Source: Candidatus Woesearchaeota archaeon
Lineage (GTDB): Archaea > Nanobdellota > Nanobdellia > Woesearchaeales > CAZJJJ01
DNA length: 34,029 nucleotides
Reading direction: 5' to 3'
NCBI GenBank assembly: GCA_046538795.1
Contig: JBKHIF010000006.1
Location: 1-34,029, forward strand
The position numbers and the translations under genes are program-made. The notes under the pieces are model-generated. The model did not search any database and was not told where the DNA came from. It saw only the letters and a program-made list of their open reading frames with translations. How positions within the stretch are numbered: the first letter of the stretch is position 1; each line of letters starts with the position of its first letter. Positions 13,250-34,029 of this stretch are shown one piece after another.

Positions 13250-13389
13250 TTTATGTTATTATTGGTAAAAAAGATATATAAATGTGTCGATTTATTCTTT
13301 ATTTTGTTTATATATGACCTATTTTTGGCATTAATGTTCTATATATGGCTTTTTTTTGATATTTTTCTTTTATTTATTCCTTATTTTGA

Positions 13390-13403
13390 GAAAAGTTTAA
13401 ATA
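13390..13403 (+). promoter_or_regulatory. Putative BRE/TATA of the GT4 gene
   Basis: gaaaag-tttaaata, archaeal consensus, in the divergent intergenic region. Confidence 0.55.
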
Positions 13404-13629
13404 ATAGTTATGTCAGAGTAAACTTAGTTTGGGTATTAAGGGAAATAGGGTAAAAACAGGCTGATAAAATGGTCTGCTATTAAGGTTTGCAACAAAAAAC
13501 ATAATTGGGATAAAAATTTGTTTTTTGTTAAAAAAAGGGTGTCTTGATTTTGACTTTTGATACCCGTAAAGCTATGCAACCTGGCTAAAATGAATGTTTT
13601 GTAAGTTTTGACATACGCGAGGTATTAAA

Positions 13630-14988: not shown

Positions 14989-15177
14989 GATGCAGATTAT
15001 CATAATGTTGAAAATTGCTTTTTGAAGCATAATCTTACTTAGGTAAGTATGGCTGGTAAGTTGAGATTATCAGTAAAAAATATGATTAATACGCTAGATT
15101 TGGTGTGATTATAGTTAAGAAAAATAAATTTTAAAAATAATATAATAGTTTTGATACGTCATCAGGAGGGGGATTTA

Positions 15178-16527
15178 ATGGTAAGCATATGTTTTTATTT
15201 TCAGGTTCATCAGCCATTCAGGATAAAGAAATACAGGATATTTGATATAGGAAACAGCCACGACTATTTTAACGAGGAAAGAAATATCCATGAATGCAGA
15301 AAAATTGCAGAAAAATGTTATCTTCCTGCAAACCGCCTAATGCTTGATCTTATCAGGCAGACTGAAGGTAGATTCAGGATTGCATATTCTATTTCAGGAG
15401 TTGCTTTGGATCAGTTTGAGAAATACACTCCTGAGGTTATAGATTCTTTCAGGGAGCTTGCAGATACAGGCGCAGTCGAGTTCCTTTCTGAAACTTATTA
15501 TCACTCGCTTTCTTTCCTGTATTCAAAACAAGAATTTGAGGAGCAGGTTGCGCTTCACAAAAAAAAGATCGAAAAATTGTTTGGACAGACTCCCAAGGTT
15601 TTCAGAAATACAGAACTAATATACAATAATGAACTTGCAAGTTATGTGGAAAAGATGGGATATAAAGGCATCCTTGCAGAAGGTGCTGATCATGTCCTTG
15701 GCTGGAGAAGTCCTAATTTTTTATACAGGCCTCATACTGCTGAAAATATTGTTCTTCTTCTGAAAAATTACAAACTCTCTGATGATGTAGCATTCAGGTT
15801 TTCAAACAAAGGCTGGGAAGAATGGCCTCTTACAGCAGAAAAATTTGCTCACTGGGTTTCAAACAATAACGGAAACGGATATGCTGTAAACCTGTTTATG
15901 GATTATGAGACATTTGGAGAGCACCAGTGGGCTGATACAGGAATATTTGATTTTATGAGGCAGCTTCCGCATGAGATCTTCAAGCATCCGCATAATGATT
16001 TCAAGACTCCTTCAGAACTAATTGATGCATATCCTGTGGCTGGTGATCTTGATATACATTCCCCTATATCCTGGGCTGATCTTGAAAGGGATCTTAGCGC
16101 ATGGCTTGGAAATCCCATGCAGCACAACGCGATAGACCAGATATATCAACTAGAAGAAACAGTAAAACAATCAGGAGATGAGAAACTTATCTCTGACTGG
16201 AGAAAGCTTACTACGAGCGACCATTTCTATTACATGTGTACAAAATGGTTCTCTGACGGAGATGTGCATAAATACTTTAATCCTCATGACAGTCCTTATG
16301 AGGCTTTTATAAGTTATATGAATATATTGAATGATCTTTTGATAAGGCTGAAAACAAAAAATGTATCTGCAAATATTCCTGAAAATGGTCCTCGGGAAGC
16401 TTTGAAAGATGTTATGGCAGTTGCAGGATCAACATCTGTTGCTGATGAGGTTTCTGGTGTAAAAACAACTGCTTCGGCAAACATTCCTTTAGAAACTCCC
16501 TCGGTCAAAGATTTTTCCACTGAATAA
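15178..16527 (+). CDS. GH57 glycoside hydrolase (alpha-amylase-like)
   Basis: FQVHQP, ETYYHSL, FRNTEL (nucleophile Glu), MDYETFGEH (acid/base Asp), SDHFYYM. ATG 15178 follows GGAGGGG. Confidence 0.93.
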   Translation: MVSICFYFQVHQPFRIKKYRIFDIGNSHDYFNEERNIHECRKIAEKCYLPANRLMLDLIRQTEGRFRIAYSISGVALDQFEKYTPEVIDSFRELADTGAVEFLSETYYHSLSFLYSKQEFEEQVALHKKKIEKLFGQTPKVFRNTELIYNNELASYVEKMGYKGILAEGADHVLGWRSPNFLYRPHTAENIVLLLKNYKLSDDVAFRFSNKGWEEWPLTAEKFAHWVSNNNGNGYAVNLFMDYETFGEHQWADTGIFDFMRQLPHEIFKHPHNDFKTPSELIDAYPVAGDLDIHSPISWADLERDLSAWLGNPMQHNAIDQIYQLEETVKQSGDEKLISDWRKLTTSDHFYYMCTKWFSDGDVHKYFNPHDSPYEAFISYMNILNDLLIRLKTKNVSANIPENGPREALKDVMAVAGSTSVADEVSGVKTTASANIPLETPSVKDFSTE

Positions 16528-19764: not shown

Positions 19765-19823
19765 GGAGCATGCTCTAAGTTATCTCAATGTGTGTTTTTG
19801 TGGTGTATGGTTGAGGTGATTTG

Positions 19824-20426
19824 ATGTTTAAAGGCAAAAGGGCCGAAGTCGGCATAGGTACATTGATTTTATTCATAGCAATGATTCTTGTCGCCGCTAT
19901 TGCTGCGAGTGTTCTAATCCAGACTGCAACAAGTCTTCAGAATAAGGCTCTTTTGACTGGCAAGCGCACCCAAGAGCAGATTTCTACTGGGATAAGTGTT
20001 CTTCTGGTATATGCAGAAGATGGCTCAACAAACAATGATCTTGATAATTTTAGTATGAAGATTAAATTGACTCCTGGTTCTGAACCATTAAAACTTAATG
20101 ATACTCTTATTGAATTTGATCTTAGCGATGGATCTGCTGATCTGGAATATAATAGTACTGGCGATTGTGAAACTGCTGGATCTTTCAAGACATCTACAAG
20201 TGGTGATGGTGTTTTTGCTGCAACTCACCTTGTTGAAGGGAGTGAATACAGGCAGCATTATCTGCACAGCGGTGATGTTGTGAAAGTTTGCTTTGCATCT
20301 CCAAGATCAATAACTCCTGATGAGGATATAGCTATAAGAATAATACCAAAGGTTGGAATACCGTCGGTAATTGAGACTGCGACGCCAGAAGTTATCAATC
20401 AACAGAGATCATATATATTCCCATAA
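19824..20426 (+). CDS. arlB: Archaellin, type A copy 1
   Basis: Class III signal [55 protein letters not shown]. Confidence 0.95.
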   Translation: MFKGKRAEVGIGTLILFIAMILVAAIAASVLIQTATSLQNKALLTGKRTQEQISTGISVLLVYAEDGSTNNDLDNFSMKIKLTPGSEPLKLNDTLIEFDLSDGSADLEYNSTGDCETAGSFKTSTSGDGVFAATHLVEGSEYRQHYLHSGDVVKVCFASPRSITPDEDIAIRIIPKVGIPSVIETATPEVINQQRSYIFP

Positions 20427-20460
20427 AGATTGAATTGAGTTTGAGATTACAGGTGAAATT

Positions 20461-21090
20461 ATGATGATGGATAAAAAAGCTGAAACAGGCATAGGAACTT
20501 TGATATTATTTATTGCAATGATTCTTGTTGCAGCTATTGCTGCTAGTGTTTTGATACAGACTGCGACATCTTTGCAGAACAAGGCGCTTTTAACAGGAGA
20601 TCGGACCCAGGGTCAGGTTTCAACAGGACTTACCACTCTTTTGATATATGGTACTAATGGTTCTGATGGTTCAATAGAAGATTTCAGGCACAAGCTGAAA
20701 TTATCTCCAGGCTCAGATCCAATCTCTATGGATGATATGCTTATTGAATTCGGTACTGAAGACCTTAGTTCTGACTATACTTATGTTGGAACTAATTGCA
20801 GTTACTATGGTGCTTGCGATGGAAGTTATTCCTCTGCTTTGGGTTATTGCGGAGACACTGCTAACAATAATGGAACATTTGCAGTGAAATATCTTGTCAA
20901 AGGATCAAATCACCAAGATGGTTATCTTGTAAGGGGAGACGTTGCAATGCTTTGCTACAGGGCTCCTGGTGGCATTGGTGAAGATACTACTCTTGTCATA
21001 AGGATAGTTCCTCCAAGAGGAATCGCTATGGCTGTGGAAACAGCTACGCCAAACATTATGGCTTCAGAAAGGGTATATGTATTTCCATGA
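20461..21090 (+). CDS. arlB: Archaellin, type B copy 1
   Basis: [17 protein letters not shown]-terminus; YGTNGSDG; four Cys; AGGTGA RBS. Confidence 0.95.
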   Translation: MMMDKKAETGIGTLILFIAMILVAAIAASVLIQTATSLQNKALLTGDRTQGQVSTGLTTLLIYGTNGSDGSIEDFRHKLKLSPGSDPISMDDMLIEFGTEDLSSDYTYVGTNCSYYGACDGSYSSALGYCGDTANNNGTFAVKYLVKGSNHQDGYLVRGDVAMLCYRAPGGIGEDTTLVIRIVPPRGIAMAVETATPNIMASERVYVFP

Positions 21091-21115
21091 ATGATTAATA
21101 AAAGGTGAAATTACG

Positions 21116-21691
21116 ATGATGAATAAGAAAGCTGATACTGGAATTGGAACATTGATACTGTTTATTGCCATGATTCTTGTGGCTGCTATTGCTGCGGGAG
21201 TCCTGATACAGACCGCGACGTCTTTGCAGAATAAGGCGCTCCTTACGGGAGATCGTACTAAGGGCCAGGTATCCACTTCCTTGTCTGTTCTTTTGATATA
21301 TGCAGAAGATGGCAGTGTTGGAAATTACGTGAACAATTTCAGTCTGAAATTAAAACTTTCTCCAGGTTCAGACCCAATAAAACTTAATGATACGTTGATT
21401 GAAGTTGATCTTTCAGACAGCTCATCTGATCTTACATATGATCCTCTGAATACCTGTCCTGCAACAACTACTGGTAATTTTAGCGTTAATTACCTTGTCC
21501 AGGGTGCTGACTATACCGAACATTATCTTCACAGGGGAGATATAATCATGCTATGCTTCCAGGCTCCAAGAGCAGTTCTTGCTGATGAGGATATTGCAAT
21601 AAGAGTTATTCCAAAGGTTGGAACTCCTACAGTTATCGAGACTGCAACGCCAGAAGTGATAAATCAGAAGAGAGCTTATATTTTTCCATGA
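21116..21691 (+). CDS. arlB: Archaellin, type A copy 2
   Basis: [42 protein letters not shown]. Confidence 0.95.
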   Translation: MMNKKADTGIGTLILFIAMILVAAIAAGVLIQTATSLQNKALLTGDRTKGQVSTSLSVLLIYAEDGSVGNYVNNFSLKLKLSPGSDPIKLNDTLIEVDLSDSSSDLTYDPLNTCPATTTGNFSVNYLVQGADYTEHYLHRGDIIMLCFQAPRAVLADEDIAIRVIPKVGTPTVIETATPEVINQKRAYIFP

Positions 21692-21734
21692 ATTAGAGAA
21701 TTTATTTTAAACAAATTGATTAGGTGAAATTACG

Positions 21735-22364
21735 ATGATGAATAAAAAAGCTGAAACCGGAATTGGAACATTGATATTGTTTATCGCAATGATTCTTGTA
21801 GCTGCTATTGCTGCGGGAGTCTTGATACAGACAGCGACGTCTTTGCAGAATAAGGCGCTCCTTACAGGAGATCGTACTAAAGGACAGGTATCAACAGGCC
21901 TTACAACCTTGTTGCTTTACGGTACTAATGGTTCTGACGGTACAATAGAGGATTTTAGGCAGAAGATCAAGCTTTCTCCTGGTTCAGATCCAATAACCAT
22001 GCATGATGCATTGATTGAGTTTGGTGTTGCATCATCTAATGTTGATCTTACTTATATTGGAACAAACTGCACTTATTATGGTTCAGACTGTAATAGTAGT
22101 TATGCTAGCAATCTTGGTTACTGCAGCGATCCAGATAACGATAACGGAACATTTGCAGTGAATTATCTTGTCAATGGTCCTAACCACCAGGATGGATACC
22201 TTGTAAGAGGAGATATCGCAATGCTTTGTTTCAGAGGTCCAAGCGGAGTCGAAGAAGACAAGAGCATAAGGATAAGCTTTATACCAAAGAAAGGGACACA
22301 GATGACAGTTGAGACAGCAACTCCAAACATCATGACGTCCGAAAGGGTTTACATATTCCCATAA
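21735..22364 (+). CDS. arlB: Archaellin, type B copy 2
   Basis: [41 protein letters not shown]. Confidence 0.95.
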   Translation: MMNKKAETGIGTLILFIAMILVAAIAAGVLIQTATSLQNKALLTGDRTKGQVSTGLTTLLLYGTNGSDGTIEDFRQKIKLSPGSDPITMHDALIEFGVASSNVDLTYIGTNCTYYGSDCNSSYASNLGYCSDPDNDNGTFAVNYLVNGPNHQDGYLVRGDIAMLCFRGPSGVEEDKSIRISFIPKKGTQMTVETATPNIMTSERVYIFP

Positions 22365-22388
22365 ATAACTGATTATAGGTGAATGACG

Positions 22389-22964
22389 ATGATGAATAAA
22401 AAAGCTGATACAGGCATAGGAACATTGATCTTGTTTATTGCAATGATCCTTGTTGCTGCAATTGCTGCGGGAGTCTTGATACAGACTGCAACATCACTAC
22501 AGAACAAGGCACTCCTTACAGGAGATCGTACCAAAGGTCAAGTATCGACATCCATGTCTGTACTTTTGATATATGCTGAGGATGGAAGCACAGGTAATTA
22601 TGTAAACAATTTTAGCATGAAACTAAAGCTTTCTCCAGGTTCAGACCCAATAAAACTCAATGATACTCTGATCGAGGTTGATCTGTCGGATAGTTCATCT
22701 GATCTTACATATGATCCTCTTGTTACATGTCCTACATCAACAGCAGGAAATTTCAGTGTGGAATATCTTGTTCAGGGATCAGATTATTCAGAGCATTATC
22801 TGCACAGAGGAGATATAATCAAACTATGTTTCCAGGCTCCAAGAGCAGTTCTTGCTGATGAGGATATTGCAATCAGGATAATACCAAAGGTTGGAACTCC
22901 TACAGTTATCGAGACTGCAACGCCAGAGGTTATTAACCAGAGAAGGTCATATATATTTCCTTGA
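22389..22964 (+). CDS. arlB: Archaellin, type A copy 3
   Basis: [23 protein letters not shown]. Start chosen from spacing to AGGTGA at 22377-22382. Confidence 0.95.
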   Translation: MMNKKADTGIGTLILFIAMILVAAIAAGVLIQTATSLQNKALLTGDRTKGQVSTSMSVLLIYAEDGSTGNYVNNFSMKLKLSPGSDPIKLNDTLIEVDLSDSSSDLTYDPLVTCPTSTAGNFSVEYLVQGSDYSEHYLHRGDIIKLCFQAPRAVLADEDIAIRIIPKVGTPTVIETATPEVINQRRSYIFP

Positions 22965-22994
22965 TTTTAAGGATTGATGTGCGGTGAATTAATT

Positions 22995-23621
22995 ATGGAT
23001 AAGAAGGCAGAAACAGGCATAGGTACATTGATTTTGTTTATTGCAATGATCCTTGTTGCGGCAATTGCTGCAGGCGTTCTTATCCAGACTGCAACATCTT
23101 TGCAAAATAAGGCACTATTGACCGGAGATCGGACCCAGGGTCAGGTATCTACCGGGCTTACTACTTTGCTTCTTTATGGCACAAATGGTTCTGATGGCAC
23201 GATTGAAGATTTCAGGCAGAAGATCAAGCTTTCTCCAGGTTCAGATCCAATCACTATGAATGATGGTCTGATTGAGTTTGGAATGTCTTCATCCAGCAGT
23301 GATCTGATTTATGTTGGGACAAATTGCACTTATTATGGTTCAGACTGTAACAGCAGCTATGAAGACCATCTTGGTTATTGCAGTGATGCTGCAAATGACA
23401 ATGGAACTTATACAGTAAAGTATCTTGTTGAGGGACCTAATCATGAGGATGGTTATCTGGTAAGAGGAGATATCGCAATGCTTTGCTTCAGAAGCTCTGT
23501 AGATGTAGAAGAAGATAAAAGCATAAGGATAAGTTTTGTGCCTAAGCGTGGAACTCCTATGACTGTTGAGACCGCTACACCCAATATAATGAATTCAGAG
23601 AGAATATATATCTTCCCTTGA
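22995..23621 (+). CDS. arlB: Archaellin, type B copy 3
   Basis: [23 protein letters not shown] at 22983-22987 supports ATG 22995. Confidence 0.95.
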
Positions 23622-23649
23622 ATTAATGGCTGACAAAAGTAAATTATGT

Positions 23650-23688
23650 GCTTTTTCAATTTCTTTTTTCTTTTTATTAATTTTCTTG
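23650..23688 (+). terminator. Putative oligo-T terminator after the six-gene archaellin block
   Basis: Several consecutive T-runs 30-65 bp downstream of the stop, followed by a new TATA (gaaaactatataaa, 23694-23707). Confidence 0.5.
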
Positions 23689-23752
23689 AAATAGAAAACT
23701 ATATAAACTTCCTTTCTATAATATTTTCTTATTCATTTAGGGTGGTGGTATT

Positions 23753-24325
23753 TTGAAGAAAGGTGAAGTTGGCATAGGGACTCTTATATTATTTATAGCG
23801 ATGATTCTTGTTGCTGCTATTGCAGCAAGCGTTCTGATACAGACTGCGACAAGCCTTCAGAACAAGGCTCTTCTGACTGGAAAAAGAACACAAAGTGTTG
23901 TTGGATCTGGGATGCAGGCTCTTTTGTTATACGGAACAGATGGTTCTGATGACGCAAGGATAGAAGAGCTTAGGCTTAAGGTCAAACTGATGGCTGGTTC
24001 AGAATCAATACGTTTCAATGAAACCTTGATCGAAGTGGATACAAGAAACGATTCTATAGACTTAGAATATAGCTCAGGTTTATGCAATGATTCCAATACT
24101 AATTCAACTCATTTTACTGTAGAGACTCTTATTGAGGGAGCTAATTCTAGAACAGGATATCTTCAGTCAGGAGATGTTGTGATGATTTGTTTTGATGCGC
24201 CTCATCCCATGGCAAAAGACGAAGAGCTTCAGGTAAGGATTATTCCAAGATACGCTCAGGTTTTGCTGATTGAAACAGCAATCCCTGAAACAGTACTTAC
24301 AAACAGGGTATTTATCTTTCCATGA
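23753..24325 (+). CDS. arlB: Archaellin, divergent type C
   Basis: [29 protein letters not shown]; ends RVFIFP; apparent own promoter. Confidence 0.93.
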   Translation: MKKGEVGIGTLILFIAMILVAAIAASVLIQTATSLQNKALLTGKRTQSVVGSGMQALLLYGTDGSDDARIEELRLKVKLMAGSESIRFNETLIEVDTRNDSIDLEYSSGLCNDSNTNSTHFTVETLIEGANSRTGYLQSGDVVMICFDAPHPMAKDEELQVRIIPRYAQVLLIETAIPETVLTNRVFIFP

Positions 24326-24452: not shown

Positions 24453-24600
24453 TGGTGCTTGGTTCCACAGGAATCCTCTTCAAGGAGCACTACGGTTGTG
24501 ACTCAAGAAGTCTTCAATTAGAAAATCACGTCTGTTGCGAAAGACGCAATACTTCGTACTTCAGTTAGGGGATATCTAAAACTTTCAGTTTTGGGGATTA
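24453..24600 (+). other. Structured non-coding island, possible IS200/IS605-family end or omegaRNA-like remnant
   Basis: Locally higher GC with several stems: TGGTGCTT/GAGCACTA, GGTTCC/GGAATC, GAAGT/ACTTC, TTGCG/CGCAA, CTAAAAC/GTTTTGG. No tnpA or tnpB in the window; family assignment is by resemblance only. Confidence 0.35.
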
Positions 24601-24647
24601 GAACTTTTTTAAATTTTTAATAAACTTAAGCAGTGGTTTTCTTTATC

Positions 24648-25772
24648 TCATTGGATCAACTTTAATTTATTCTTTATTGATTCTATCTCATTATCTTTTT
24701 TTTCAGAATTATTTTTGTTTATCATTATTTCTTCAGGAATAGTTCCTGTTTCTTTATATGATGTTTCCTGCTTGTTGCTGTTTATATCCCTTACATATCT
24801 TTTCTTTTCAGTTTCAAGATCTTCTTTTACTGAGTTTATCTTTACAGGAACTTTGTTTTCTCTTAAAAGCGATAAGAGCCCATACCACTGATCCTGAGTC
24901 CAGTCAGCTTTGTTTTTTGCAACAAAATCTCTGATTATCTCTTCATAGGTCAATGGCCTGTTTTGCTGGATAGATTCTTTTATGATTTCTTTTTGTTCTT
25001 CTTGTTTTTGCACTTTTTCTGTAATTGATGACAGTTTATTTTTGATCTCACTGATATTTTGCACATCATTTTTTTGAGGCTTTATTTTTTTCATATTTTT
25101 AATAAGCCCTTTTAAATCAGGAAATTCTATCTTTATTTTTTTTCTTTCTTTTTTCACTTTCTCTTTGGTTTCTGTCTTGATATTTTCTTTTTTGATCTTT
25201 TTTGTCTTGATTGTTACGAAAGTCTGATATGAAAAATATCCCAAAAACATGAGCAGAAAGATTATTATCAAAGCATTAATAAGATGGGTTTCGATAAATG
25301 AAAATAAACCTTTCATAAATCCTGATCTGTTTTCTTCTACCCTGAAATTAACAACAATCGTTTCAGGAGAAACAGGATATGAGCTTGATCCTCTCATCAT
25401 AAGAACTGAATTATCTTTCTTGTTGACAATAGCAGGTATTATCTGAAAGCTGTAGTTTATTTCGGGGTTGGGATTTTTTCTTAGGGCATTGCTCAGATCA
25501 AATGAAAAAGAAATTTTCTTTTCTTCATTAGGACCTAATTCAAAAACCTCTTCCTGAAAATTTATCTTGACAAAACCGTATGTATCAACAACATTAAGCT
25601 TGATATTGAGCTGTTGAGCCCTATTATTTGTAAGGGTAAATTCCAAATGGTTATCTTTTTCCTCTGCGAGTCCAAAATCCTTATTGATAAGTCTTTCATT
25701 TTCTGCTGTAGCTGCATAGCTAGAAAACAGAAGTATCAGAATGAATAAAATCTTGAAAAGAGTTCTCTTCAT
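24648..25772 (-). CDS. Hypothetical bitopic membrane protein
   Basis: Signal peptide, beta-rich Ig-like extracellular part, TM ALIIIFLLMFLGYFSY, Lys-rich cytoplasmic region. Confidence 0.75.
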   Translation of the reverse strand: MKRTLFKILFILILLFSSYAATAENERLINKDFGLAEEKDNHLEFTLTNNRAQQLNIKLNVVDTYGFVKINFQEEVFELGPNEEKKISFSFDLSNALRKNPNPEINYSFQIIPAIVNKKDNSVLMMRGSSSYPVSPETIVVNFRVEENRSGFMKGLFSFIETHLINALIIIFLLMFLGYFSYQTFVTIKTKKIKKENIKTETKEKVKKERKKIKIEFPDLKGLIKNMKKIKPQKNDVQNISEIKNKLSSITEKVQKQEEQKEIIKESIQQNRPLTYEEIIRDFVAKNKADWTQDQWYGLLSLLRENKVPVKINSVKEDLETEKKRYVRDINSNKQETSYKETGTIPEEIMINKNNSEKKDNEIESIKNKLKLIQ

Positions 25773-25832
25773 TTTTTTTATTTCCTCAAAGACTCTTATG
25801 ATGCATGAATTTAAATTCTTTTTTCTTTTTTG

Positions 25833-26708
25833 TTAAAAATCTTTGGATCTTTTGTATGGTATTCCTGATTCTTTAACAAGAGAGACTATCCTGTCTTTTT
25901 CTTTCCCTAGTCCTTTCCAGTCAAATATGATTATTTCTGCTGGTCTTGTTGATTGAGATAAGGCAGATTTAAGGTTTTCCTCGTTGAGATTTTCTAACGC
26001 ATATTTAGGGCACACGTGAGAAAAGGCAATGTTTTCATTTAGTATTATCTTCTTGAAATTGCTCATCGTGTGAGTTCCTCCTATACCAATAGCAGTTATG
26101 TTTTTTTTTGATATTATAGATTTCGCATTTTCTATAAGATGCATTATTGTTTCAGCTATTAGATCTCCTGCAATCTGATTTTTCCATTCGTTTTCCAAAG
26201 AACCTATCTCGATGAACATCACATGTGATTCAAGATATGGTCCATGGTGTGTTGCTTCCTGTACAACATCAAAATTTTTAAGTTCAGATATTTCAGAATG
26301 CCTTTTTTCCATGTAAATTATCGCTTCTTTTACAAATTGTTCTGATGCTTTGCATAAGAATCTGTCTTGTCCGCCCATCTCAGCATTTCCCCAATTTCCC
26401 GGAGTATGTGCTGTAAGAGAAGGTATTCCAGATCTTGAACTGTGTTTTGTCGCATATATTATGATATTTTTATCTAAATTATTATTTTCTTTAAGAAATG
26501 ATAATTTTTTATCTATATCATCATGGTCTATGGTTTCTTCAGATATAGTCACGAGCCGGGTTTCAGCATCTTTGTGTTCATAGATAAGATTTCCTTCATA
26601 TTTTTCTTTTGTTATTTTGAATTGTGACCTTTTAATAAGATTGTCTTTTATGTTCATCCCGGCAGGATCTTTTTCTGAAACAACAATCGTAATAATAATA
26701 TCTTTCAT
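25833..26708 (-). CDS. dtdA: D-aminoacyl-tRNA deacylase (archaeal DTD2/GEK1 type)
   Basis: S..DPAGMNI, KHSS..PSLTAHTPGN, EATHHGP, FIEIGS..EW, GIGGTH. Start is 26708 or 26729. Confidence 0.92.
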   Translation of the reverse strand: MKDIIITIVVSEKDPAGMNIKDNLIKRSQFKITKEKYEGNLIYEHKDAETRLVTISEETIDHDDIDKKLSFLKENNNLDKNIIIYATKHSSRSGIPSLTAHTPGNWGNAEMGGQDRFLCKASEQFVKEAIIYMEKRHSEISELKNFDVVQEATHHGPYLESHVMFIEIGSLENEWKNQIAGDLIAETIMHLIENAKSIISKKNITAIGIGGTHTMSNFKKIILNENIAFSHVCPKYALENLNEENLKSALSQSTRPAEIIIFDWKGLGKEKDRIVSLVKESGIPYKRSKDF

Positions 26709-26818
26709 AACCAAAAAGATGTAATTCATGATTTAATTAATTTGTTTTTTTAATTGAAAATAAAGATTAATTTTCTACCAAAAACTATATAAACCCGTAA
26801 GTAGTCACTAAATCTAAT

Positions 26819-27451
26819 ATGATTGGTGTGCTCAAGAAGTTTCTAAAAAAGTTTCTTAAAAGGCTTTTCAAGAAGAAAAAAAATGTAAAATTAGGTCTAT
26901 ATGGACCGCCCAATTCAGGAAAGACTACTCTTGCTAATAGGATTTGCAAAGACTGGTTGGGGGAAGATATGGGTTCTGTTTCAAAAGTTGCACACGAGAC
27001 AAGAGAAGTACAGATCAAAGAACAGATTAATCTTAAATCTGGCAACAAAGAACTTCTGTTCAATCTTGTCGATACTCCTGGCATTGCAACAAAGATTGAC
27101 TATGAAGACTTCCTTAAGGCTGGGCTTAAAGAAGATATTGCGAAAGAGAGGGCCAAAGAAGCTACAAAAGGAGTTATAGATTCAATCAAATGGCTTGACG
27201 ACATGGATGCTGTCGTAATAGTACTTGATTCAACTCTTGATCCATATTCACAGGTAAATATAACTATAGTAGGTAATCTGGTCGCAAAAGACATCCCTGT
27301 CCTTATAGCTGCAAACAAGACTGATCTGAAAAAATCAGACATGAAAAAGATCCAGTCTGCTTTTCCCCAATATAGAGTTATCGGAATATCTGCTAAGCAG
27401 GGAAAGAATATTGATGAATTTTATGAGTCATTATTTGATCTGGTCGAATAG
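26819..27451 (+). CDS. oapA: Small Era-like GTPase OapA
   Basis: GPPNSGKTTLANRI, HETR, DTPG, NKTD, ISAK; DP..QVN signature; first gene of the conserved three-gene operon. Confidence 0.88.
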   Translation: MIGVLKKFLKKFLKRLFKKKKNVKLGLYGPPNSGKTTLANRICKDWLGEDMGSVSKVAHETREVQIKEQINLKSGNKELLFNLVDTPGIATKIDYEDFLKAGLKEDIAKERAKEATKGVIDSIKWLDDMDAVVIVLDSTLDPYSQVNITIVGNLVAKDIPVLIAANKTDLKKSDMKKIQSAFPQYRVIGISAKQGKNIDEFYESLFDLVE

Positions 27452-27525
27452 TTGCGATTATATCTTTGAGTAAAGTTTTTATAGCCATGGATTTTAAGAT
27501 TGAAAAAGTAAGATTTTGAATTAAA

Positions 27526-28023
27526 ATGCTGACACTACAATTTATTCCATATGCAGAAATTGAATCCCTTAATTCACATTCCAGGATCCAAAAAGTTCTG
27601 GGCGTTATAAAAGATAATAAGATAGTTCTTATGGAAGGAAGGCTGAAAAAATCTGAAGAAGCAGAACTCATAAAAAAAACTATGGAAGAGATCGGCGAAA
27701 ATGCAGATAATGATTTTAAGGGAATTGAGCTTTCAGTTATACAGCCATCTCTTAAGAATAAGGATTTCTTCAGGCAGTTAAGGTACAGGTTTATAAATAT
27801 GATATTAGGAGATAGGCAGGGTTTCACTGTTGTAGGTCCTGCATCGATTGTAAAAGAGATAAAACAGGATCCTGATAAGCTTCAGCTTTTCATAGAAAAT
27901 ATTTCATCAGGTACATTATCTGTAGAAGATAACAGCACTTCATCAGATTATGAAGAAAACAATTCTAAAAACAATGGAAAAAAAAAGAAACGATCAAAGA
28001 AGCATAAGATCGGAAAGAGATAA
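27526..28023 (+). CDS. oapB: DUF2073 family protein OapB
   Basis: IVLMEGRL..EEAELI..TM..I....F.GIE and G.TVVGPA motifs; operon position. Confidence 0.85.
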   Translation: MLTLQFIPYAEIESLNSHSRIQKVLGVIKDNKIVLMEGRLKKSEEAELIKKTMEEIGENADNDFKGIELSVIQPSLKNKDFFRQLRYRFINMILGDRQGFTVVGPASIVKEIKQDPDKLQLFIENISSGTLSVEDNSTSSDYEENNSKNNGKKKKRSKKHKIGKR

Positions 28024-28025
28024 AA

Positions 28026-28439
28026 ATGCCTCATCAATGTGTTAGATGCGGAGCCATGTATGAAGATGGTTCTAATGAGATCTTGAAGGGCTGCTCATGC
28101 GGAAGCAAATTGTTCTTTTTTATAAAAAAAGAAAAGATAGATGAGCTTAAGAATGCCACTGTCAATCTTTCAGAAAATGAGAAAAAGCAGTTGGAAAAAG
28201 ACGTTCTTGATATAGTCGGCGAGAGAAAAAATGTGGAAACTGGCCCTGATGATGTCATTGTTCTTGACTTTGAATCAATAAGAGCCTTAAAACCTGGTGT
28301 CTTTGAACTGGATCTTGTAAATCTGTTTAATGAGAAAAATCCTTTGGTATATAAGCTTGCAGAAGGTAAATATGTTATTGATATTCCAGAAACCTTTTCA
28401 AGACATGGCAAGGAAGGTAAAGAAAAAAAAATGATCTAG
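28026..28439 (+). CDS. oapC: Zn-ribbon DUF2072 family protein OapC
   Basis: MPHQCVRCG..Y.DGS.EILKGCSCGSKLF; ESI...PG.FELDL..L; EGKY.I. Confidence 0.88.
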   Translation: MPHQCVRCGAMYEDGSNEILKGCSCGSKLFFFIKKEKIDELKNATVNLSENEKKQLEKDVLDIVGERKNVETGPDDVIVLDFESIRALKPGVFELDLVNLFNEKNPLVYKLAEGKYVIDIPETFSRHGKEGKEKKMI

Positions 28440-28447
28440 TTATTATG

Positions 28448-28927
28448 CTACATATTTTCAACCAGATTTGTTATTTCAAAAACATAGTTTTTATCGGTTA
28501 TTGAGCCAATTAAACTTATATCTTCTGAAGGATTATATAATAGATAGATTGTATTTACTTTTCTTGGAGAAGCTATATAATCACATATGGACTGCCTGTT
28601 TTTTTCTGAGATTTCCCAATCACATTCATAAAGTCCTGATTCATCATATATCAGAAAACGAAGAGATGAAAAAACGTCCCCTTTTTCATCTTTGTAATTA
28701 GATATTATAGCCTTATTTTTTTCATTTTCATATGTTTCTATGATAACATCTTGTATTATTATTGTAGATGCTTTTTCATCTTGTTTTGGAACTGCATACT
28801 TTCTGTTTTCAAGTATGTCTTTTATATCAGAAGCAATATATATTCTTGGCATAGAAAGATATAGTCTTTTATCTTCTTTGGAAAGAAAATCCATTGTTTT
28901 TATTTCTAGATCACTAATCTCTCTCAT
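28448..28927 (-). CDS. Hypothetical protein
   Basis: About 160-aa ORF beginning 8 bp after the ychF stop, probably co-transcribed; no motif recognised. Confidence 0.65.
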   Translation of the reverse strand: MREISDLEIKTMDFLSKEDKRLYLSMPRIYIASDIKDILENRKYAVPKQDEKASTIIIQDVIIETYENEKNKAIISNYKDEKGDVFSSLRFLIYDESGLYECDWEISEKNRQSICDYIASPRKVNTIYLLYNPSEDISLIGSITDKNYVFEITNLVENM

Positions 28928-28934
28928 CTTCAAC

Positions 28935-30134
28935 CTATTTGTCTGCAATTATTTCAACAACATCTCTGTGTTTCAGCTTATGCTCTTTACCTACAGTTCT
29001 TTTTGTCTTTACATCTATAGCTCTTATGAAATTATCTCCTAAGTCAGAATGTATCTTGTAGGCAAAATCAAGAGCTGTTGATTCTTCAGGAAGAAGAAAA
29101 CAATCCGGAAGTACATTTCCATACTGGTCTTCAAGCTTGTTAACTCCGCCTGGAAAGATGGCAATGAGCTTAAGAAGATCAAAAGCCGCTTTATTAATCA
29201 CTTCCTGAACTCCTGTGCTTCCATAGCTTTTAAGGATATTTTCTTTTATAAAATTAAGAGCAGTTTTCTGTTTTTCTGAAAGTGTATCTTGTTTTGATAT
29301 TGTAAAATCATCATTTCCTGCGATATAGTCTATAAGATTGTGTTTCGATGCTTCTTTTAGCGCAAGTTCTGATTCAGCAGAGCACCCCACAATTATGTGA
29401 TCTTTGAATTCTTCTTTTATCTTTATAAGATTTTTTTTTGAAACAGGTACATCTATCTTGTTTGCAGCAATTATAGTTGGTTTAGTTTCTTGCCTTAGAT
29501 ATGAGGCAAGCTCATAAAGTTCATCATCATTCCATTGAGTTGGTTGCTTTTCTATAAGATCTTGTTTTTTTAATCCTGAAGCTACCATGTCTTCTGTAAC
29601 ACCTAATCCAGACAACTGTTTTCCAAGAGCCTTTTTTATATCTCCATGTTCCTGCTGTATTGTCCTTGCGAACTTTTCCCAGCCCTTTTTTAGTATTCCA
29701 AGATACCACATGTCAAGCTCTTTTTCAAGAAATCTTACATCTTCACGAGGATCATAGCTTCCTGAAGGAACAGGTTCTCCTTTTTCGTTTGTGCTTCCTG
29801 AAACATCGATAACATGGATGAGAGCATCTGCTTGTCTTAGGTCATCAAGGAATTGATTTCCCATGCCTTTTCCTTCATAAGCTCCTGGTACAAGACCTGC
29901 AACATCTATTACTTGGATAGGAACAAACCTTTGATGATTTACACAGAAACCTTCTCTTGGATTGCACTGCACATTGAATTCCTTATCAACACAATCAATC
30001 CTTACATGTGCAACGCCTGAGTTAGGTTTTATGGTTGCAAAAGGATAATTAGCTATTTCAACATTTGCAAGTGTGAGTGCTTTAAAGAATGTGCTTTTTC
30101 CAACATTAGGTTTTCCTACAACTCCTATTATCAT
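28935..30134 (-). CDS. ychF: YchF/Obg-family ATPase/GTPase (archaeal type) with TGS domain
   Basis: GKPNVGKST, ANYPFATI.PN, DVAGLVPGA..GKGMGNQFL, NKID, C-terminal TALDFAYKIHSD. Confidence 0.93.
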   Translation of the reverse strand: MIIGVVGKPNVGKSTFFKALTLANVEIANYPFATIKPNSGVAHVRIDCVDKEFNVQCNPREGFCVNHQRFVPIQVIDVAGLVPGAYEGKGMGNQFLDDLRQADALIHVIDVSGSTNEKGEPVPSGSYDPREDVRFLEKELDMWYLGILKKGWEKFARTIQQEHGDIKKALGKQLSGLGVTEDMVASGLKKQDLIEKQPTQWNDDELYELASYLRQETKPTIIAANKIDVPVSKKNLIKIKEEFKDHIIVGCSAESELALKEASKHNLIDYIAGNDDFTISKQDTLSEKQKTALNFIKENILKSYGSTGVQEVINKAAFDLLKLIAIFPGGVNKLEDQYGNVLPDCFLLPEESTALDFAYKIHSDLGDNFIRAIDVKTKRTVGKEHKLKHRDVVEIIADK

Positions 30135-30170
30135 AATTCAGAGTAATTTATTCTCTTTTTAAAAGTTTTT

Positions 30171-31661
30171 TCAATTAGAAGACGTTTTTTCAAGATAATA
30201 TTTTCTGAAGTTCATCCTTATACGTGCAGATGACATGACCAATGATCTTCTTTTTAATCCGAGGGAAGAGGCAAGCTGGTTTAGGTCATGACCATTTCTG
30301 CATGCATAGGTTTCAAAAATTTCTCTGCATCGTGGTGATAATTCTGACATATATTGATCAACAATTTTTTCAACATCTTGATCATCAGATTTTTCTAATC
30401 CCTGAAAAAAATCTTCGATTATCTTTTCTTTAGAATAAGTTATTTCAGGAAGTTCATCTGCTTCCAGTTTATTATATAATTCTCTGAATTCCTGTCTTAT
30501 ATTTGAAGCTGCAACACCCAGACTCCTTTTTGTCAATCCAAAATCAGAAGCAATCTCTTCAAGAGGTTTATCAGTTTCATTCCTGTTTGCATAAGAAACC
30601 AGCCTTTTTCTTTTTTCAGAAGGTAAATTGCTTACATATCTATGCATAAATTCAACTGTGTGGATAGATGGCCTTTTTGGAAAATCATATAACATGAAAT
30701 CTTCCACACTTTTAAGACATGCCTCAGGATAGATCTCTCTTTCAAAATCATCTTTTTCTGATCCAAATATAGATCTTAGAATTTCTGAAGAATCTATGAA
30801 ATCCTGATATATATTTATGTCCGGTTTGCCGATTTTCGCATGATCAAAACCAATCTGAAATTTCTCAAATTTTTTACTTACCTTTTTTTCAATCTGTCTT
30901 GTTCTTTCTTTACTGATTCCAAGATCATTTCCAATAGCTGATAATGAATTTCCATTTTTTTCATATTCATTCAAAAGGATTCTTCTTTTGAATACTTCTC
31001 TTTCGGTCTCATTTAATGTGGGAAGAAAATGTACAAGTATATCTCTTGCTTCGAAAATTGGATCACTTCTTTGTTTAAATTCTGCATTTTTATCTTCAAT
31101 AATGTCACTTAGTTCAGTATATCCATCAGAATTTTTATAAACTTCTTTATTGAGTGAGGAAACTTCAAGCGCATTTATCATTTTATTTATAATTTCCGGC
31201 TTAATCTTGAAGTAATCAGAAATTTCTTCAATGCTAGGATCTCTTTCATGTGTTTTTCTGAATTCATCTTGGTATTTTGATATTTGATTGAGAATATTGA
31301 TTTTGTTTTCAGGAATTCTTATTGTTGCAGAATTTTTTATGGCTTTTGTTATTTTTTGCCTGATCCACCAAACTGCATAACTTATAAAGTGATATCCTTT
31401 GTCAACTTCAAAGCGGTCAACAGCATCAATGAGTCCTTCATTACCCCAGGATATTCTTTCTTCAAGACTTAATCCATTATATTTTTTGGCAACATTGACT
31501 ACAAACTTAAGATTTGCCTCAACAATCTTGTTTTTGATATCTGGATCTTTTGTTTTTTCATATAAAGAAAATAATTCTTTTTCTTCTTCAGGTGTCAAGA
31601 GAGGGACCTTATTTATCGAAATAAAATAATTTTTGAGAGAATCCAACTCTGTATTTTTCAT
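30171..31661 (-). CDS. Bacterial-type RNA polymerase sigma-70 (RpoD/SigA-like) factor with C-terminal extension
   Basis: Region 1.2 DSLKNYF..I.KVPLLTPEEEKEL; region 2 EANLKFVVNVAKKY...GYHFISYAVWWIRQ; region 3 TIRIP...RDPSIEEIS; region 4 L..IG..LGISKERTRQIE. Confidence 0.92.
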   Translation of the reverse strand: MKNTELDSLKNYFISINKVPLLTPEEEKELFSLYEKTKDPDIKNKIVEANLKFVVNVAKKYNGLSLEERISWGNEGLIDAVDRFEVDKGYHFISYAVWWIRQKITKAIKNSATIRIPENKINILNQISKYQDEFRKTHERDPSIEEISDYFKIKPEIINKMINALEVSSLNKEVYKNSDGYTELSDIIEDKNAEFKQRSDPIFEARDILVHFLPTLNETEREVFKRRILLNEYEKNGNSLSAIGNDLGISKERTRQIEKKVSKKFEKFQIGFDHAKIGKPDINIYQDFIDSSEILRSIFGSEKDDFEREIYPEACLKSVEDFMLYDFPKRPSIHTVEFMHRYVSNLPSEKRKRLVSYANRNETDKPLEEIASDFGLTKRSLGVAASNIRQEFRELYNKLEADELPEITYSKEKIIEDFFQGLEKSDDQDVEKIVDQYMSELSPRCREIFETYACRNGHDLNQLASSLGLKRRSLVMSSARIRMNFRKYYLEKTSSN

Positions 31662-31662
31662 A

Positions 31663-31691
31663 TTGACAAGTGTTCACATATTATTTATAAT
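31663..31691 (+). promoter_or_regulatory. Exact sigma-70 consensus promoter sequence TTGACA-N17-TATAAT
   Basis: TTGACA at 31663-31668, 17-bp spacer, TATAAT at 31686-31691. The match is exact; function is unproven. Confidence 0.6.
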
Positions 31692-31697
31692 ATTTTA
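31683..31697 (-). promoter_or_regulatory. Putative archaeal BRE/TATA of the sigma gene (near-leaderless)
   Basis: Minus strand reads taaaata-ttataaat, ending about 22 bp upstream of ATG 31661, similar to the spacing at rps2 and oapA. Confidence 0.55.
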
Positions 31698-31752
31698 TGT
31701 TCTTTTCTGCTTTTACACAATATTTATAAGTATGTTAGAGTAAAAAACATTT

Positions 31753-32556
31753 ATGCTAAAAGTAGATCTTCACCTTCATGCTTCAGAAGACAAACGCGAA
31801 CCTGTAATGTTCTACGATGCAAAGATGCTTATAGATAGGGCAAAAGAGCTTGAGTTTGATGCTCTTGCTATAACTCTTCATGACCAGTTTTTCTACAATG
31901 AAGATATTAAAAAATATGCGGATTCACGAGATATAATACTTATTCCGGGAATAGAGAAAGAAATTGAAGACAAGCACGTACTTATACTTAACATAGATAA
32001 ATATCCTGATATAGATAAGCTTGAAGATTTGGCAAAACTTCCCAAATCCTCGTTAATAATAGCTCCCCATCCATTTTATTTTATAGGACGGTCAGTAGGC
32101 AAGTTCCTTAAGGAAAATCCGTCATTATTCCATGGGGTTGAATATAATTCAGTTTATTTGTCTTTTCTTAATTCAGCGAACAGAAAGGCAAAAAAGTTTT
32201 CAGTAGCCCATAATCTTCCTTTGGTAGGAAATACTGACTGTCATTTATTGTCTCAATTTGGCCGCACATACACACTCGTCGATGCAAAAAAAGATAAAGA
32301 ATCTATAATACGTGCCATAAAGAACAATAAAGTCATTCTTATGACAAGGCCTCTTGGTTTTTTTGTCTTTGTGAAATTTATATTAAGGTCAATACTTTCC
32401 AAGTTTGCTGAATTATTTGGCATTAACATGAAAAAGGTTCATAAAACAAAAATAAAAAAAATAAACGACAGAACAGAACAAAGAAAAAATATTAAGCCTA
32501 AAACTGCTGAAAAAGCTGATGATTCATGGGATGAAGACCTGAAAGATCCTTTATGA
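31753..32556 (+). CDS. PHP-family metal-dependent phosphoesterase
   Basis: KVDLHLH, DALAIT.HD, IPGIE, H.L, IAPHP, GNTDCH. Confidence 0.88.
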   Translation: MLKVDLHLHASEDKREPVMFYDAKMLIDRAKELEFDALAITLHDQFFYNEDIKKYADSRDIILIPGIEKEIEDKHVLILNIDKYPDIDKLEDLAKLPKSSLIIAPHPFYFIGRSVGKFLKENPSLFHGVEYNSVYLSFLNSANRKAKKFSVAHNLPLVGNTDCHLLSQFGRTYTLVDAKKDKESIIRAIKNNKVILMTRPLGFFVFVKFILRSILSKFAELFGINMKKVHKTKIKKINDRTEQRKNIKPKTAEKADDSWDEDLKDPL

Positions 32557-32683
32557 TTTTTAGGATAATTTTCCTAAAAAAACAATTAATGTTCCTAAGA
32601 ACTGTATCTAGCGGAAATACAAAGAGCATTTATGACACCTCAAAGAGAAACATTTTTAAATAAATCAAATTTCCAGACATAAA

Positions 32684-33283
32684 ATGGCAGAAACAGAATC
32701 ATTTTTGGTACCTCAGGATACATACCTGAAGGCTGGAATTCATATTGGAACTAAGTTCAGGACAAAATATATGGAACCTTTTATTTACAAGACAAGACCT
32801 GATGGTCTTTCAGTCCTTAACATCCAGAAAATAGATGAAAGGATAAAGATTGCAGCAAATCTTCTTTCAAAGTATGAACCTGAAGAGATATTGATCGTCA
32901 GTCGAAGAGAAAATGGCTGGAAAGCAGTAAAGCTTGCAGGAAAATTTATTGGATGTAAAGTTTATGCAGGAAGATATCCGCCTGGACTTCTTACAAATAC
33001 GACTCTTGAAGATTTCATGGAAATTAAAGTTATCATGGTTACAGATGCTTGGCCTGACAGAAATGCACTTGAAGATGCAAGCAAGGTTGGAATACCTGTA
33101 ATAGGACTTTGTGATACCAATAATCAGCCGAACAATATTGATTTGGTTGTTCCATGCAATAACAAGGGTAAGAAATCACTGGGATTATTTTTCTATATCT
33201 TAACAAAAGAATATCTTAAGGCAAACAAAAGGCTCAATGATGAAAAAGAGATTCCATTTGATGAGTTTGTCGAAGAAGATTAG
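32684..33283 (+). CDS. rps2: 30S ribosomal protein uS2, archaeal type
   Basis: YLKAGIHIGTK, M..FIYK.RPDGL.VL, GRYPPG.LTN, LCDTNN, DLVVPCNNKGKKSL. Confidence 0.97.
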   Translation: MAETESFLVPQDTYLKAGIHIGTKFRTKYMEPFIYKTRPDGLSVLNIQKIDERIKIAANLLSKYEPEEILIVSRRENGWKAVKLAGKFIGCKVYAGRYPPGLLTNTTLEDFMEIKVIMVTDAWPDRNALEDASKVGIPVIGLCDTNNQPNNIDLVVPCNNKGKKSLGLFFYILTKEYLKANKRLNDEKEIPFDEFVEED

Positions 33284-33401
33284 ATTATATACCCTTTTTA
33301 CATTCTTTTTTCGAAACTTTTTTATTACTTTCTATTGAAAAGAATCTTTTATATCCAGATAAATATATTATGATTTCATGCAAAATTAGATGTGATTTTA
33401 C

Positions 33402-34029
33402 ATGGCTGAGATGAAAAACAAAGAGATGCTTGAAGGAAACATTCTTCCTACGCTTTTAAAACTTTCATGGCCTATAGTTGTAGGTATGCTTATTCAGACT
33501 GCTTTTAATGTAGTTGATACTATATTTGTAGGCAGGCTAGGACCTGATGCTCTTGCAGCCATGACTATCGCTTTTCCGATAGTATTCTTTTTCATGGCCA
33601 TAGCTGCAGGAACCGGAGTCGGAGTAAATTCTCTTATCTCGAGATATCTTGGAGCAGATAGAAAAAAAGAAGCAGATAATGTTGCAGAACATGGAATACT
33701 TCTGGCCGTTGTTTTATATCTATCATTTTCCATGATTGGCTTATTTGCTTCCAGGCCATTGTTTCAGCTATTGGGTGCAGAAGGAGTCATCTTGGATATG
33801 ATACTTCAATTCACAAGAACATTCTTTATAGGAAGCATCTTTCTTTTCCTCACATTCATTTGCAACAATATTCTCAGAGCTGAAGGTGATACAAAAACCC
33901 CTATGGTGGTTATGACCATAGCTGCAATTATGAATATCATACTTGATCCAATATTCATATTTGGACTTGGAATAATACCTGCGATGGGAATCAGGGGAGC
34001 TGCGCTTGCAACTGTCCTTGCAAGAATGG
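33402..34029 (+). CDS. MATE family efflux transporter, 3'-truncated by the window edge (absent from ORF track)
   Basis: MAEMKNKEMLEGNILPTLLKLSWPIVVGMLIQTAFNVVDTIFVGRLGPDALAA...LRAEGDTKTPM...NIILDPIFIFG...MGIRGAALAT. Confidence 0.93.
   Translation, partial: MAEMKNKEMLEGNILPTLLKLSWPIVVGMLIQTAFNVVDTIFVGRLGPDALAAMTIAFPIVFFFMAIAAGTGVGVNSLISRYLGADRKKEADNVAEHGILLAVVLYLSFSMIGLFASRPLFQLLGAEGVILDMILQFTRTFFIGSIFLFLTFICNNILRAEGDTKTPMVVMTIAAIMNIILDPIFIFGLGIIPAMGIRGAALATVLARM

Follow-up and report, generated by a model that had tools for sequence, protein, structure and literature searches.

The DNA analysed here, referred to as the window, is a stretch of 34,029 nucleotides (nt) from Candidatus Woesearchaeota archaeon (contig JBKHIF010000006.1 of assembly GCA_046538795.1, positions 1 to 34,029 of the forward strand), which carries on its minus strand, at 30171..31661 (stop codon included), a gene of the sigma-70 family encoding 496 amino acids (aa). 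The product is a compact, primary-like sigma-70-family protein of bacterial origin, with regions 1.2 to 4 and no region 1.1, and the gene truly belongs to the chromosome of a woesearchaeal (DPANN) archaeon, which comes from microbial mats; its identity, origin and nativeness, taken jointly, can be held with great confidence. The occurrence of sigma-70 genes in DPANN was already published in 2021, and the window copy adds little to that fact; what is new here is a predicted architecture with three sigma4-type modules and an orphan tail, an unusual region 2.2, bacterial nearest kin, and an empty site in the sister genus. As to the function, the reading that we favour, with a probability of roughly 0.4, is that the protein might be a domesticated, sequence-specific DNA-binding transcription regulator acting within the archaeal system of TBP, TFB and RNA polymerase (RNAP).

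The open reading frame (ORF) of the sigma gene comprises 496 codons from its ATG start, with no internal stops, i.e., an open frame of 1,488 nt at 31% GC. An earlier note, made from the sequence alone, had recognised regions 1.2, 2, 3 and 4 in it, and all four exceed the curated gathering scores of their Pfam families: region 1.2 (Sigma70_r1_2, PF00140; aa 7-30, 31572..31643) with 28.0 bits versus a cut-off of 22; region 2 (Sigma70_r2, PF04542; aa 46-110, 31332..31526), embedding the core-binding helix 2.2 and the -10 recognition regions 2.3/2.4, with 40.2 versus 24; region 3 (Sigma70_r3, PF04539; aa 124-194, 31080..31292) with 31.7 versus 25.3; and region 4 (Sigma70_r4, PF04545; aa 213-261, 30879..31025), the -35-type helix-turn-helix, with 45.8 versus 24.1, all on the minus strand. 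Regions 1.2 and 3 are thus both found, which is the architecture of the sigma factors of groups 1 and 2. The same note had called the gene a full-length sigma-70 gene; this stands as far as the four regions are concerned, but the ~230 C-terminal residues are an extension that it had missed. The homology to sigma factors is limited to the N-terminal ~267 residues, and the best 120 matches among 5.8 billion clustered proteins cover ~52% of the query.

The best NCBIfam matches of the window sigma are models of the RpoD/RpoS/SigA type (E = 1.8e-49 to 4e-45), and the solved chains of SigA (8x6f, 7l7b, 7ckq), RpoS (7vf9, 5ipl) and Escherichia coli RpoD (4jk1) are collinear with it over aa 7-265 (E = 5e-37 to ~1e-26), with the aromatic/polar -10 residues and the -35 recognition helix conserved. 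Unlike these solved bacterial proteins, the window sigma possesses neither region 1.1 nor the non-conserved region, bears the extra tail, and falls far below the equivalog cut-offs of NCBIfam, none of which is reached (168.6 versus 384.5 for TIGR02997, 164.2 versus 394 for RpoS NF004207, and 154.1 versus 354 for RpoD_Cterm). Membership in the MZA anti-phage system was considered and rejected: the likeness to MzaA concerns the generic sigma-70 domain only (NF041931, 2.3e-37; PADLOC MzaA, 3.4e-26), the match spans just the sigma part (positions 410-657 of 683) and scores 129 bits versus a cut-off of 800, and no defence genes are adjacent, the neighbours being housekeeping genes.

The C-terminal tail can be divided into two repeats, each of which appears to be a degenerate module of the sigma3.2 plus sigma4 type: repeat 1 (aa 317-396, 30474..30713, minus strand) and repeat 2 (aa 413-489, 30195..30425, minus strand), sharing 34% identity over 80 aa (E = 1e-10). 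The second one gives sub-threshold matches to the Pfam families r4 and r4_2 (E = 0.015 and 0.009, respectively). When both repeats were compared together with a sigma3.2-sigma4 profile (aa 166-268 of a 50-row alignment), the match had a probability of 91.8% (E = 7.5e-7, 90 columns); a shorter stretch of the repeats matched sigma4 with 86.5%, versus 0.7% and 21% for the controls sigma2 and sigma3. In the AlphaFold model the same four-helix pattern is seen in sigma4 and in each tail unit, with a pLDDT of 33-72 in the tail versus ~87-98 in most blocks of the sigma domains, and all the atlas look-alikes of the tail are sigma region-4 clusters, which is to be taken as a lead only. A word-index search with aa 268-496 disclosed no homolog among proteins of 272-868 aa, and when 1.84 billion representatives were searched exhaustively with phmmer, nothing came up beyond a 267-aa piece of the window protein itself and a 1,185-aa translation of a low-complexity tandem repeat, judged spurious. 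C-terminal extensions were also seen in only five of 52 further archaeal sigma ORFs, and at 44-129 aa they are all shorter than that of the window protein. The predicted architecture is therefore sigma1.2, sigma2 and sigma3 followed by three modules of the sigma3.2/sigma4 type, two of them being the degenerate copies of the tail; these comparisons indicate that the sigma3.2-sigma4 module was duplicated twice in tandem after the acquisition of the gene, as a lineage-specific event.

The bacterial affinity of the gene emerges from several comparisons. The best matches are bacterial sigma factors of ~290 aa, 46% identical over aa 5-261, the named ones belonging to Spirochaetes; in a search of species-representative genomes with a profile built on an 8-row alignment, the best 80 loci kept are all bacterial, mostly from Spirochaetota and Bacteroidota with a few others. 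By contrast, the best match among 65 archaeal sigmas sampled from the order Woesearchaeales is 41.7% identical, on a contig of 1,549 bp whose binning is doubtful, and the runner-up is 36.8% identical; 46 of the 66 bacterial rows score above the best of the 65 archaeal rows. The window copy, a primary-like sigma with all four regions, is nearer to the bacterial sigmas than to any of these 65 sequences. The archaeal sequence on the 1,549-bp contig (L122, G170:C211:1-1549) is itself the most bacterial-like of the "archaeal" sigmas, with E = 9.6e-110 to a profile dominated by Spirochaete-type sigmas, and its contig carries nothing else.

A phylogenetic tree of 44 rows places the window sigma, without resolution, among sigmas of Spirochaetota and Clostridia and one archaeal sequence, at the end of a branch of length 1.59 (median 0.37). 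A single clade embedding the 15 archaeal rows is rejected (cost of 43.9 log-likelihood units, p-AU 0.0016), and therefore the sigma genes either entered the order at least twice or moved in the other direction; the bacterial sample is biased, consisting of the nearest relatives of the window query only, and several branches of the tree, which was built in a quick mode, are long. The bacterial kin, the scores and the rejected clade support the proposal, made from the sequence, that the gene was horizontally acquired. The compact sigmas of the RpoD/SigA type (~285-305 aa) of Spirochaetota and Bacteroidota share with the window sigma the signatures of regions 2.3/2.4 and 4.2, the lack of region 1.1 and the length of the core; those of Bacteroidota are presumably the unusual primary sigma of the phylum, lacking region 1.1. 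Whereas they end directly after region 4 and serve a bacterial RNAP, the window sigma has 230 more residues, lies on a long branch, shows three substitutions in region 2.2, and belongs to a genome without a bacterial RNAP.

A gene whose closest relatives are bacterial, found on an archaeal contig, might be an artefact of assembly or binning, i.e., a bacterial fragment fused to archaeal DNA. The window corresponds to a whole contig (C35) of a 1.34-Mb genome in 97 contigs (completeness 97.6%, contamination 1.6%), and it was compared with the contigs of two metagenome runs, here X1 and X2, deriving from two studies, both of microbial mats; no RNA run is listed among those that contain the stretch. 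In X1, the possible source, a single contig of 17,332 bp spans 24514-34029 and extends past the window, running ~7.8 kb beyond its end at 34029. In X2, one contig covers 26261-31018, reaching from OapA past YchF into the sigma gene, and a second one, at 31019-32239, takes in the remainder of the sigma gene and runs into the PHP gene; the two halves abut to the base, and no contig bridges 31018/31019. This unbridged break within the gene, together with the bacterial kin and the truncated 267-aa gene call on a 29,472-bp contig, is what could speak for an artefact. The 267-aa form (aa 230-496), however, is not a separate gene product: it is explained by the break of the X2 contigs at 31018/31019, the gene call starting at the next TTG.

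Several lines of evidence stand against a fusion of alien DNA. X1 spans the region with a single contig, each half of the gene in X2 is joined to an archaeal neighbour at a similar depth (7.07 and 6.22; ~11 in X1, the depth being flat), and region 4 continues in frame across the break point of X2. The only difference between the sigma genes of X1 and X2 is synonymous (Ala164, GCG to GCA). Moreover, GC content and codon usage fit the genome, an archaeal promoter lies upstream, GC is even along the contig (0.30 to 0.40), and the informative ones among the 30 ORFs scanned in the window are archaeal or neutral (archaellins, OapB/C, an archaeal uS2, an archaeal D-aminoacyl-tRNA deacylase). An artefact thus appears extremely improbable. 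The contigs of the two studies support both junctions of the sigma gene, the check that had been recommended against a chimeric contig, which finds no support.

The immediate neighbours were likewise those expected from the earlier note, which had placed the sigma gene between an archaeal-type ychF and PHP/rps2 and had seen no mobile-element genes beside it. Profile matches confirm a YchF-related GTPase at 28935-30134 (NF007171, 564 bits versus a cut-off of 387), a PHP-domain gene at 31753..32556 on the plus strand, divergent from the sigma gene (PHP_C, 5.5e-11) and preceded by a TATA-like element of its own ~28 nt upstream, and an archaeal/eukaryotic-type uS2 at 32684-33283 (TIGR01012, 228.7 bits versus 211.5); no transposase, integrase or phage family was matched among the 30 scanned ORFs of the window.

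The sigma gene also looks like a gene of its host in its expression signals. A TATA box (TTATAA/TATAAA, starting at -29/-28 from the ATG) is located at 31684..31690 on the minus strand and falls inside the genome-wide peak of TATA-like hexamers at -32..-25 (432 and 198 counts versus ~65 per 4-nt background bin, in 1,120 naive gene calls), as expected for archaeal transcripts that are mostly leaderless; the transcript of the sigma gene is probably leaderless as well. The codon-usage score of the gene lies at the 78.5th percentile of the genome, with a GC content of 0.308 versus 0.355 +/- 0.033 for the genes of the genome (~1.4 standard deviations below) and a third-position GC (GC3) of 0.214 (~1.6 standard deviations below the mean). 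The archaeal TATA-like promoter previously noticed is real and lies at the usual place for this genome, and the description of the gene as domesticated is borne out by this promoter at the standard distance, by host-like codons, by the same gene order in two studies, and by a difference between them that is only synonymous.

The transcription apparatus of the host is archaeal. The genome contains one TBP and one TFB, Rpb1_1 was matched just once, inside an operon of the archaeal order B''-B'-A'-A'', and the named homologs of its A' subunit, ~70% identical, are labelled "Candidatus Woesearchaeota" or "Nanoarchaeota". The C-terminal domain of the bacterial alpha subunit (alpha-CTD, PF03118) found no match in the 97.6%-complete genome, while the same search matched 10 of 14 control genomes, all 10 of them bacteria; with no alpha-CTD and a single, archaeal Rpb1_1, no cognate bacterial-type RNAP was found in the same genome. 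A control of the partner-switching type (SigB/SigF) was also considered but finds no support, since the genome yielded no STAS domain and no clear kinase of the RsbW/SpoIIAB type, the only RsbW-like candidate being one HATPase_c_2 match under the cut-off (26.4 versus 27.4).

The functional residues were compared over 65 archaeal and 66 bacterial rows, a comparison that is indicative only, the archaeal rows having been chosen by their best region-2 score and the bacterial ones representing one subfamily. The bacterial consensus reaches 90% or more at 76 positions; the window sigma agrees with it at 55 of them and departs from it at 21. The -10-type residues Y95, W98, W99 and Q102 and the region 4.2 residues E252, R253, R255 and Q256 are identical to the consensus of the 66 bacterial rows; we take the former to be Y430, W433, W434 and Q437 of E. 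coli, and the latter to belong to the -35 helix, on the basis of the E. coli numbering and the alignment offset. In region 2.2, whose helix binds the beta' clamp in bacteria, the changes D68E, L69R and E72W occur at columns at least 90% conserved as D, L and E. The codon of Trp72 (31446..31448, minus strand) occupies the position of the near-universal Glu of the "EGN" motif of region 2.2; Trp is found there in none of the 65 archaeal and none of the 66 bacterial rows, versus Glu in 55/65 and 65/66, respectively.

These data bear on the idea that the gene has no function today and is a leftover of its transfer, either neutral or in decay. Such a relic would agree with the long terminal branch, with the unusual substitutions at the 21 consensus positions, with the orphan and poorly modelled tail, and with the lack of an ortholog in the sister genus (see below). 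It is hard to reconcile with a frame of 1,488 nt that has stayed open, with the 55 consensus positions kept, with a canonical promoter and host-like codons, with two samples identical save for one synonymous change, and with a family retained in ~42% of the genomes of the order, often in multiple copies. The relic is accordingly considered unlikely; the neutral decay that the earlier note had named as a possible refutation is not seen, the ORF being intact and the key residues kept.

The favoured reading is a regulator acting on DNA rather than a conventional initiation factor. In the mechanism that we favour, the retained -10-type (sigma2) and -35-type (sigma4) surfaces, plus the two extra helix-turn-helix modules, would occupy promoter-proximal DNA, in a mode of action that can be likened to that of many bacterial-type helix-turn-helix regulators of archaea. 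Because the protein lacks the autoinhibitory region 1.1 and carries three changes in the core-binding helix, a DNA binding independent of RNAP, or loosely coupled to it, might be likelier than the formation of a holoenzyme.

Some observations weigh against the favoured regulator. No binding site was found: a -35-like hexamer, TGTCAA, located at -7 in the leader of the gene itself, is within chance (6 and 7 matches genome-wide versus 6.2 +/- 4.1 for hexamers of the same composition), and as an autoregulatory site it was rejected, being at chance level and not present at the paralogs. Eight of the 11 conserved positions of region 2.2 are kept in the window copy, and the motif is well kept across the archaeal sigmas, with D in 61, L in 52, E in 55, G in 62 and N in 52 of the 65 rows (mean 0.82 versus 0.46-0.70 for the other regions); one may argue from this that binding to an RNAP clamp of some kind persists in the family at large. 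The tail, with its low-confidence model and no homologs, may be disordered or decaying. Furthermore, no ortholog exceeds 46% identity, and the single synonymous difference between X1 and X2 has no statistical power as a sign of purifying selection.

The conservation of region 2.2 leads to the alternative that the protein is a true RNAP-binding factor, whose sigma2 would sit on the clamp coiled-coil of the archaeal A' subunit, the homolog of the bacterial beta' clamp helices; it would then be an alternative factor for promoter specificity or open-complex formation, working alongside TFB, TFE or Spt4/5 or competing with them. That the sole RNAP is archaeal, and yet most of the 65 archaeal sigmas still have the motif of region 2.2, would be readily understood in this way, as would the preservation of the promoter-melting residues. 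A co-fold of sigma aa 1-120 with A' aa 1-420, both with alignments, scored 0.39, 0.32 and 0.30 (median 0.32) versus 0.06 for the best control, with contacts agreeing at 63% or more and a partner pLDDT of at least 77, an outcome graded as weak support; in calibration, 116 of 157 solved complexes attain the mark, as do 2 of 215 mismatched pairs, but passes at values up to 0.60 come from only 18 of the 157 and from both of these mismatches. The co-folding that had been proposed as a check thus went some way in favour of the archaeal clamp, but since complexes of sigma with the beta' clamp are solved, the pass may be a memory of that likeness, and it was counted as a small shift. Against clamp docking there are also the Trp replacing the Glu and the Arg replacing the conserved Leu of region 2.2 in the window copy, and the choice of the archaeal rows by their best region-2 score, which inflates the conservation of region 2. 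In addition, according to PMC7289017, archaeal initiation is not known to use sigma. Clamp docking is less likely than the favoured regulator, and more likely than the other alternatives considered here.

A bolder form of the same idea, for which the chances seem slim, would be that the sigmas of Woesearchaeales, the window copy among them, dock by region 2.2 on the archaeal RNAP clamp and add promoter recognition and melting of the bacterial style to an enzyme of the TBP/TFB type, Trp72 and Arg69 being adaptations to the clamp and the two extra modules providing added contacts with DNA or RNAP; if true, it would represent a natural hybrid of the bacterial and archaeal initiation systems.

The near-complete set of determinants of a bacterial primary-like sigma might instead be kept for use in another cell, i.e., the protein could be an effector acting on the bacterial RNAP of a partner or host and redirecting the transcription of that cell. 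The nearest relatives, sigmas of Spirochaetota and Bacteroidota, which are common bacteria of mats, would fit this proposal. The substitutions in region 2.2, however, fall on the very surface needed by the bacterial core, none of the 30 window ORFs scanned came up as a secretion or transfer gene, the four genes of this sort in the genome lie in housekeeping surroundings, and to our knowledge no bacterial host of this lineage has been described; the effector is therefore also unlikely. The domesticated regulator remains the reading that we prefer.

The comparison with the sister genus shows a contrast at the site of the gene. The sigma and PHP genes and their spacers, between YchF and uS2, form a block (30135..32683) that is missing there in the sister genus, which keeps the order archaellins, D-aminoacyl-tRNA deacylase (DTD), OapA, OapB, OapC, (ORF), YchF, uS2. 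The spacing between YchF and uS2 is 153 bp in G002, 234 bp in G003 and ~160 bp in G005, with neither sigma nor PHP in between; using the window sigma as query, no sigma was found in any of the six sister-genus genomes (completeness 72-98%), and homologs of the PHP gene occur in 18 of 40 relatives and in 0 of 6 sister-genus genomes. In G006 an NTPase and an ORF of no assigned function are located between uS2 and YchF, and in G001 GatA, GatB and AspRS adjoin YchF, uS2 being on a different contig; no mobile element was seen at the corresponding sites of these two genomes. The YchF-uS2 site is thus a place of rearrangement that bears no trace of mobile elements. Outgroups do not separate an insertion here from a deletion in the sister genus, because YchF lies within 1.5 kb of uS2 in none of 23 loci of other families; an insertion fits better, because the affinity of the gene is bacterial. 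A linkage of sigma and PHP was not seen elsewhere, G022, G038 and G008 carrying homologs of the two at separate places.

The window sigma is not alone in its genome, where four matches to region 2 were found in all, and the other three sigma-like genes likewise sit among housekeeping genes. One paralog, on contig C18 (L102; it and the phosphatase, PIN and Fic genes named here occupy 437-1195 (-), 3602-4447 (+), 4711-5103 (-) and 6778-8094 (+)), lies beside nucleotide-sugar enzymes and has PIN and Fic genes downstream, with a SpoIIE/PP2C phosphatase (E = 1e-7) 2.4 kb away. The other two form a tandem pair on contig C54 (L103; 2479-3411 and 3368-4369, plus strand), overlapping by 44 nt and flanked by SRP54 and threonyl-tRNA synthetase; the tree joins them as sisters (SH-aLRT 99), and they therefore derive from a local duplication.

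Region 2 was detected in 85 of the 201 sampled genomes of the order (~42%), one of them a one-contig genome, and in 69 of the 153 high-quality ones, with up to seven matches per genome; four of the 85 carriers are unpublished genomes (G188, G118, G138, G127), without which the count is 81/197. Many of the relatives' sigma-like ORFs have N-terminal extensions of ~150-415 aa before the core, often rich in lysine (e.g., L007 in G034:C3, L008 in G020:C67, L141 in G058:C9 and L106 in G102:C17).

Castelle et al. 2021 (Front Microbiol 12:660052, PMC8204110) describe sigma-70 genes (fam00359) in DPANN, prevalent in Woesearchaeota; they exclude mis-binning, report that anti-sigma factors were not found, and leave the mechanism open. 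The window gene resembles the genes described there in being a woesearchaeal sigma beside archaeal markers, with mis-binning excluded and TBP and TFB present, and in the lack of an anti-sigma factor, the genome analysed here showing no STAS and only the RsbW-like match below the cut-off. Like them, it shares its contig with genes of archaeal (DPANN) phylogeny, as the neighbours, the homologs of A' and the contigs of the two studies indicate. It differs from them in being a primary-like sigma of four regions with its nearest kin among bacteria, and in the tandem sigma3.2-sigma4 duplication predicted at its C-terminus and the Trp of region 2.2, the last two being unique to the window copy. No functional study of archaeal sigma-70 genes was found in the literature searched.

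Apart from the sigma gene, the window harbors other features of some interest. Seven tandem archaellin genes (19821-24325, plus strand; PF01917, E = 5e-26 to 3e-31) are present in this DPANN genome of 1.3 Mb, and the sister genus has at least four in the same place. Downstream of them, an OapA-like GTPase, OapB (PF09846) and OapC (PF09845) form a cluster of origin-associated proteins (26819-28439, plus strand), close to which there may be a replication origin; the sister genus shows the same synteny. The OapC gene has at its 3' end a run of nine A, from which one base is missing at position 28423 in the X1 and X2 contigs with respect to the window, a homopolymer-length difference that would alter the final few codons; at position 26358 both runs have T where the window has G, which changes Phe124 of the D-aminoacyl-tRNA deacylase to Leu. 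A glycogen-type cluster (9522-16527) contains a glycogen synthase (PF05693, 2.8e-153), a GT4/starch-synthase-like enzyme and a GH57 enzyme. Lastly, the ORFs at 2-5288 on the plus strand are two of very great length (at least 1,201 and 579 aa), with beta-helix/NosD and DUF11 repeats; they probably encode surface proteins, and the first of them runs off the end of the contig.

The use of sigma versus TBP/TFB is the textbook dividing line between the bacterial and the archaeal/eukaryotic modes of initiation, and the fact that many Woesearchaeales (85 of the 201 genomes sampled) keep intact sigma genes without a bacterial polymerase is a published and unexplained puzzle. The window copy offers an experimental handle on it, being a compact, primary-like sigma with nearly all of the DNA-recognition residues and defined changes in the polymerase-binding helix; a further handle is given by the putative lineage-specific triplication of the sigma4-type module and by the clean contrast between presence here and absence in the sister genus. 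If a sigma of this kind binds the archaeal RNAP, it would bear on the interchangeability of the bacterial and archaeal ways of initiation; should it bind only DNA, a general initiation factor would have been recycled as an ordinary regulator.

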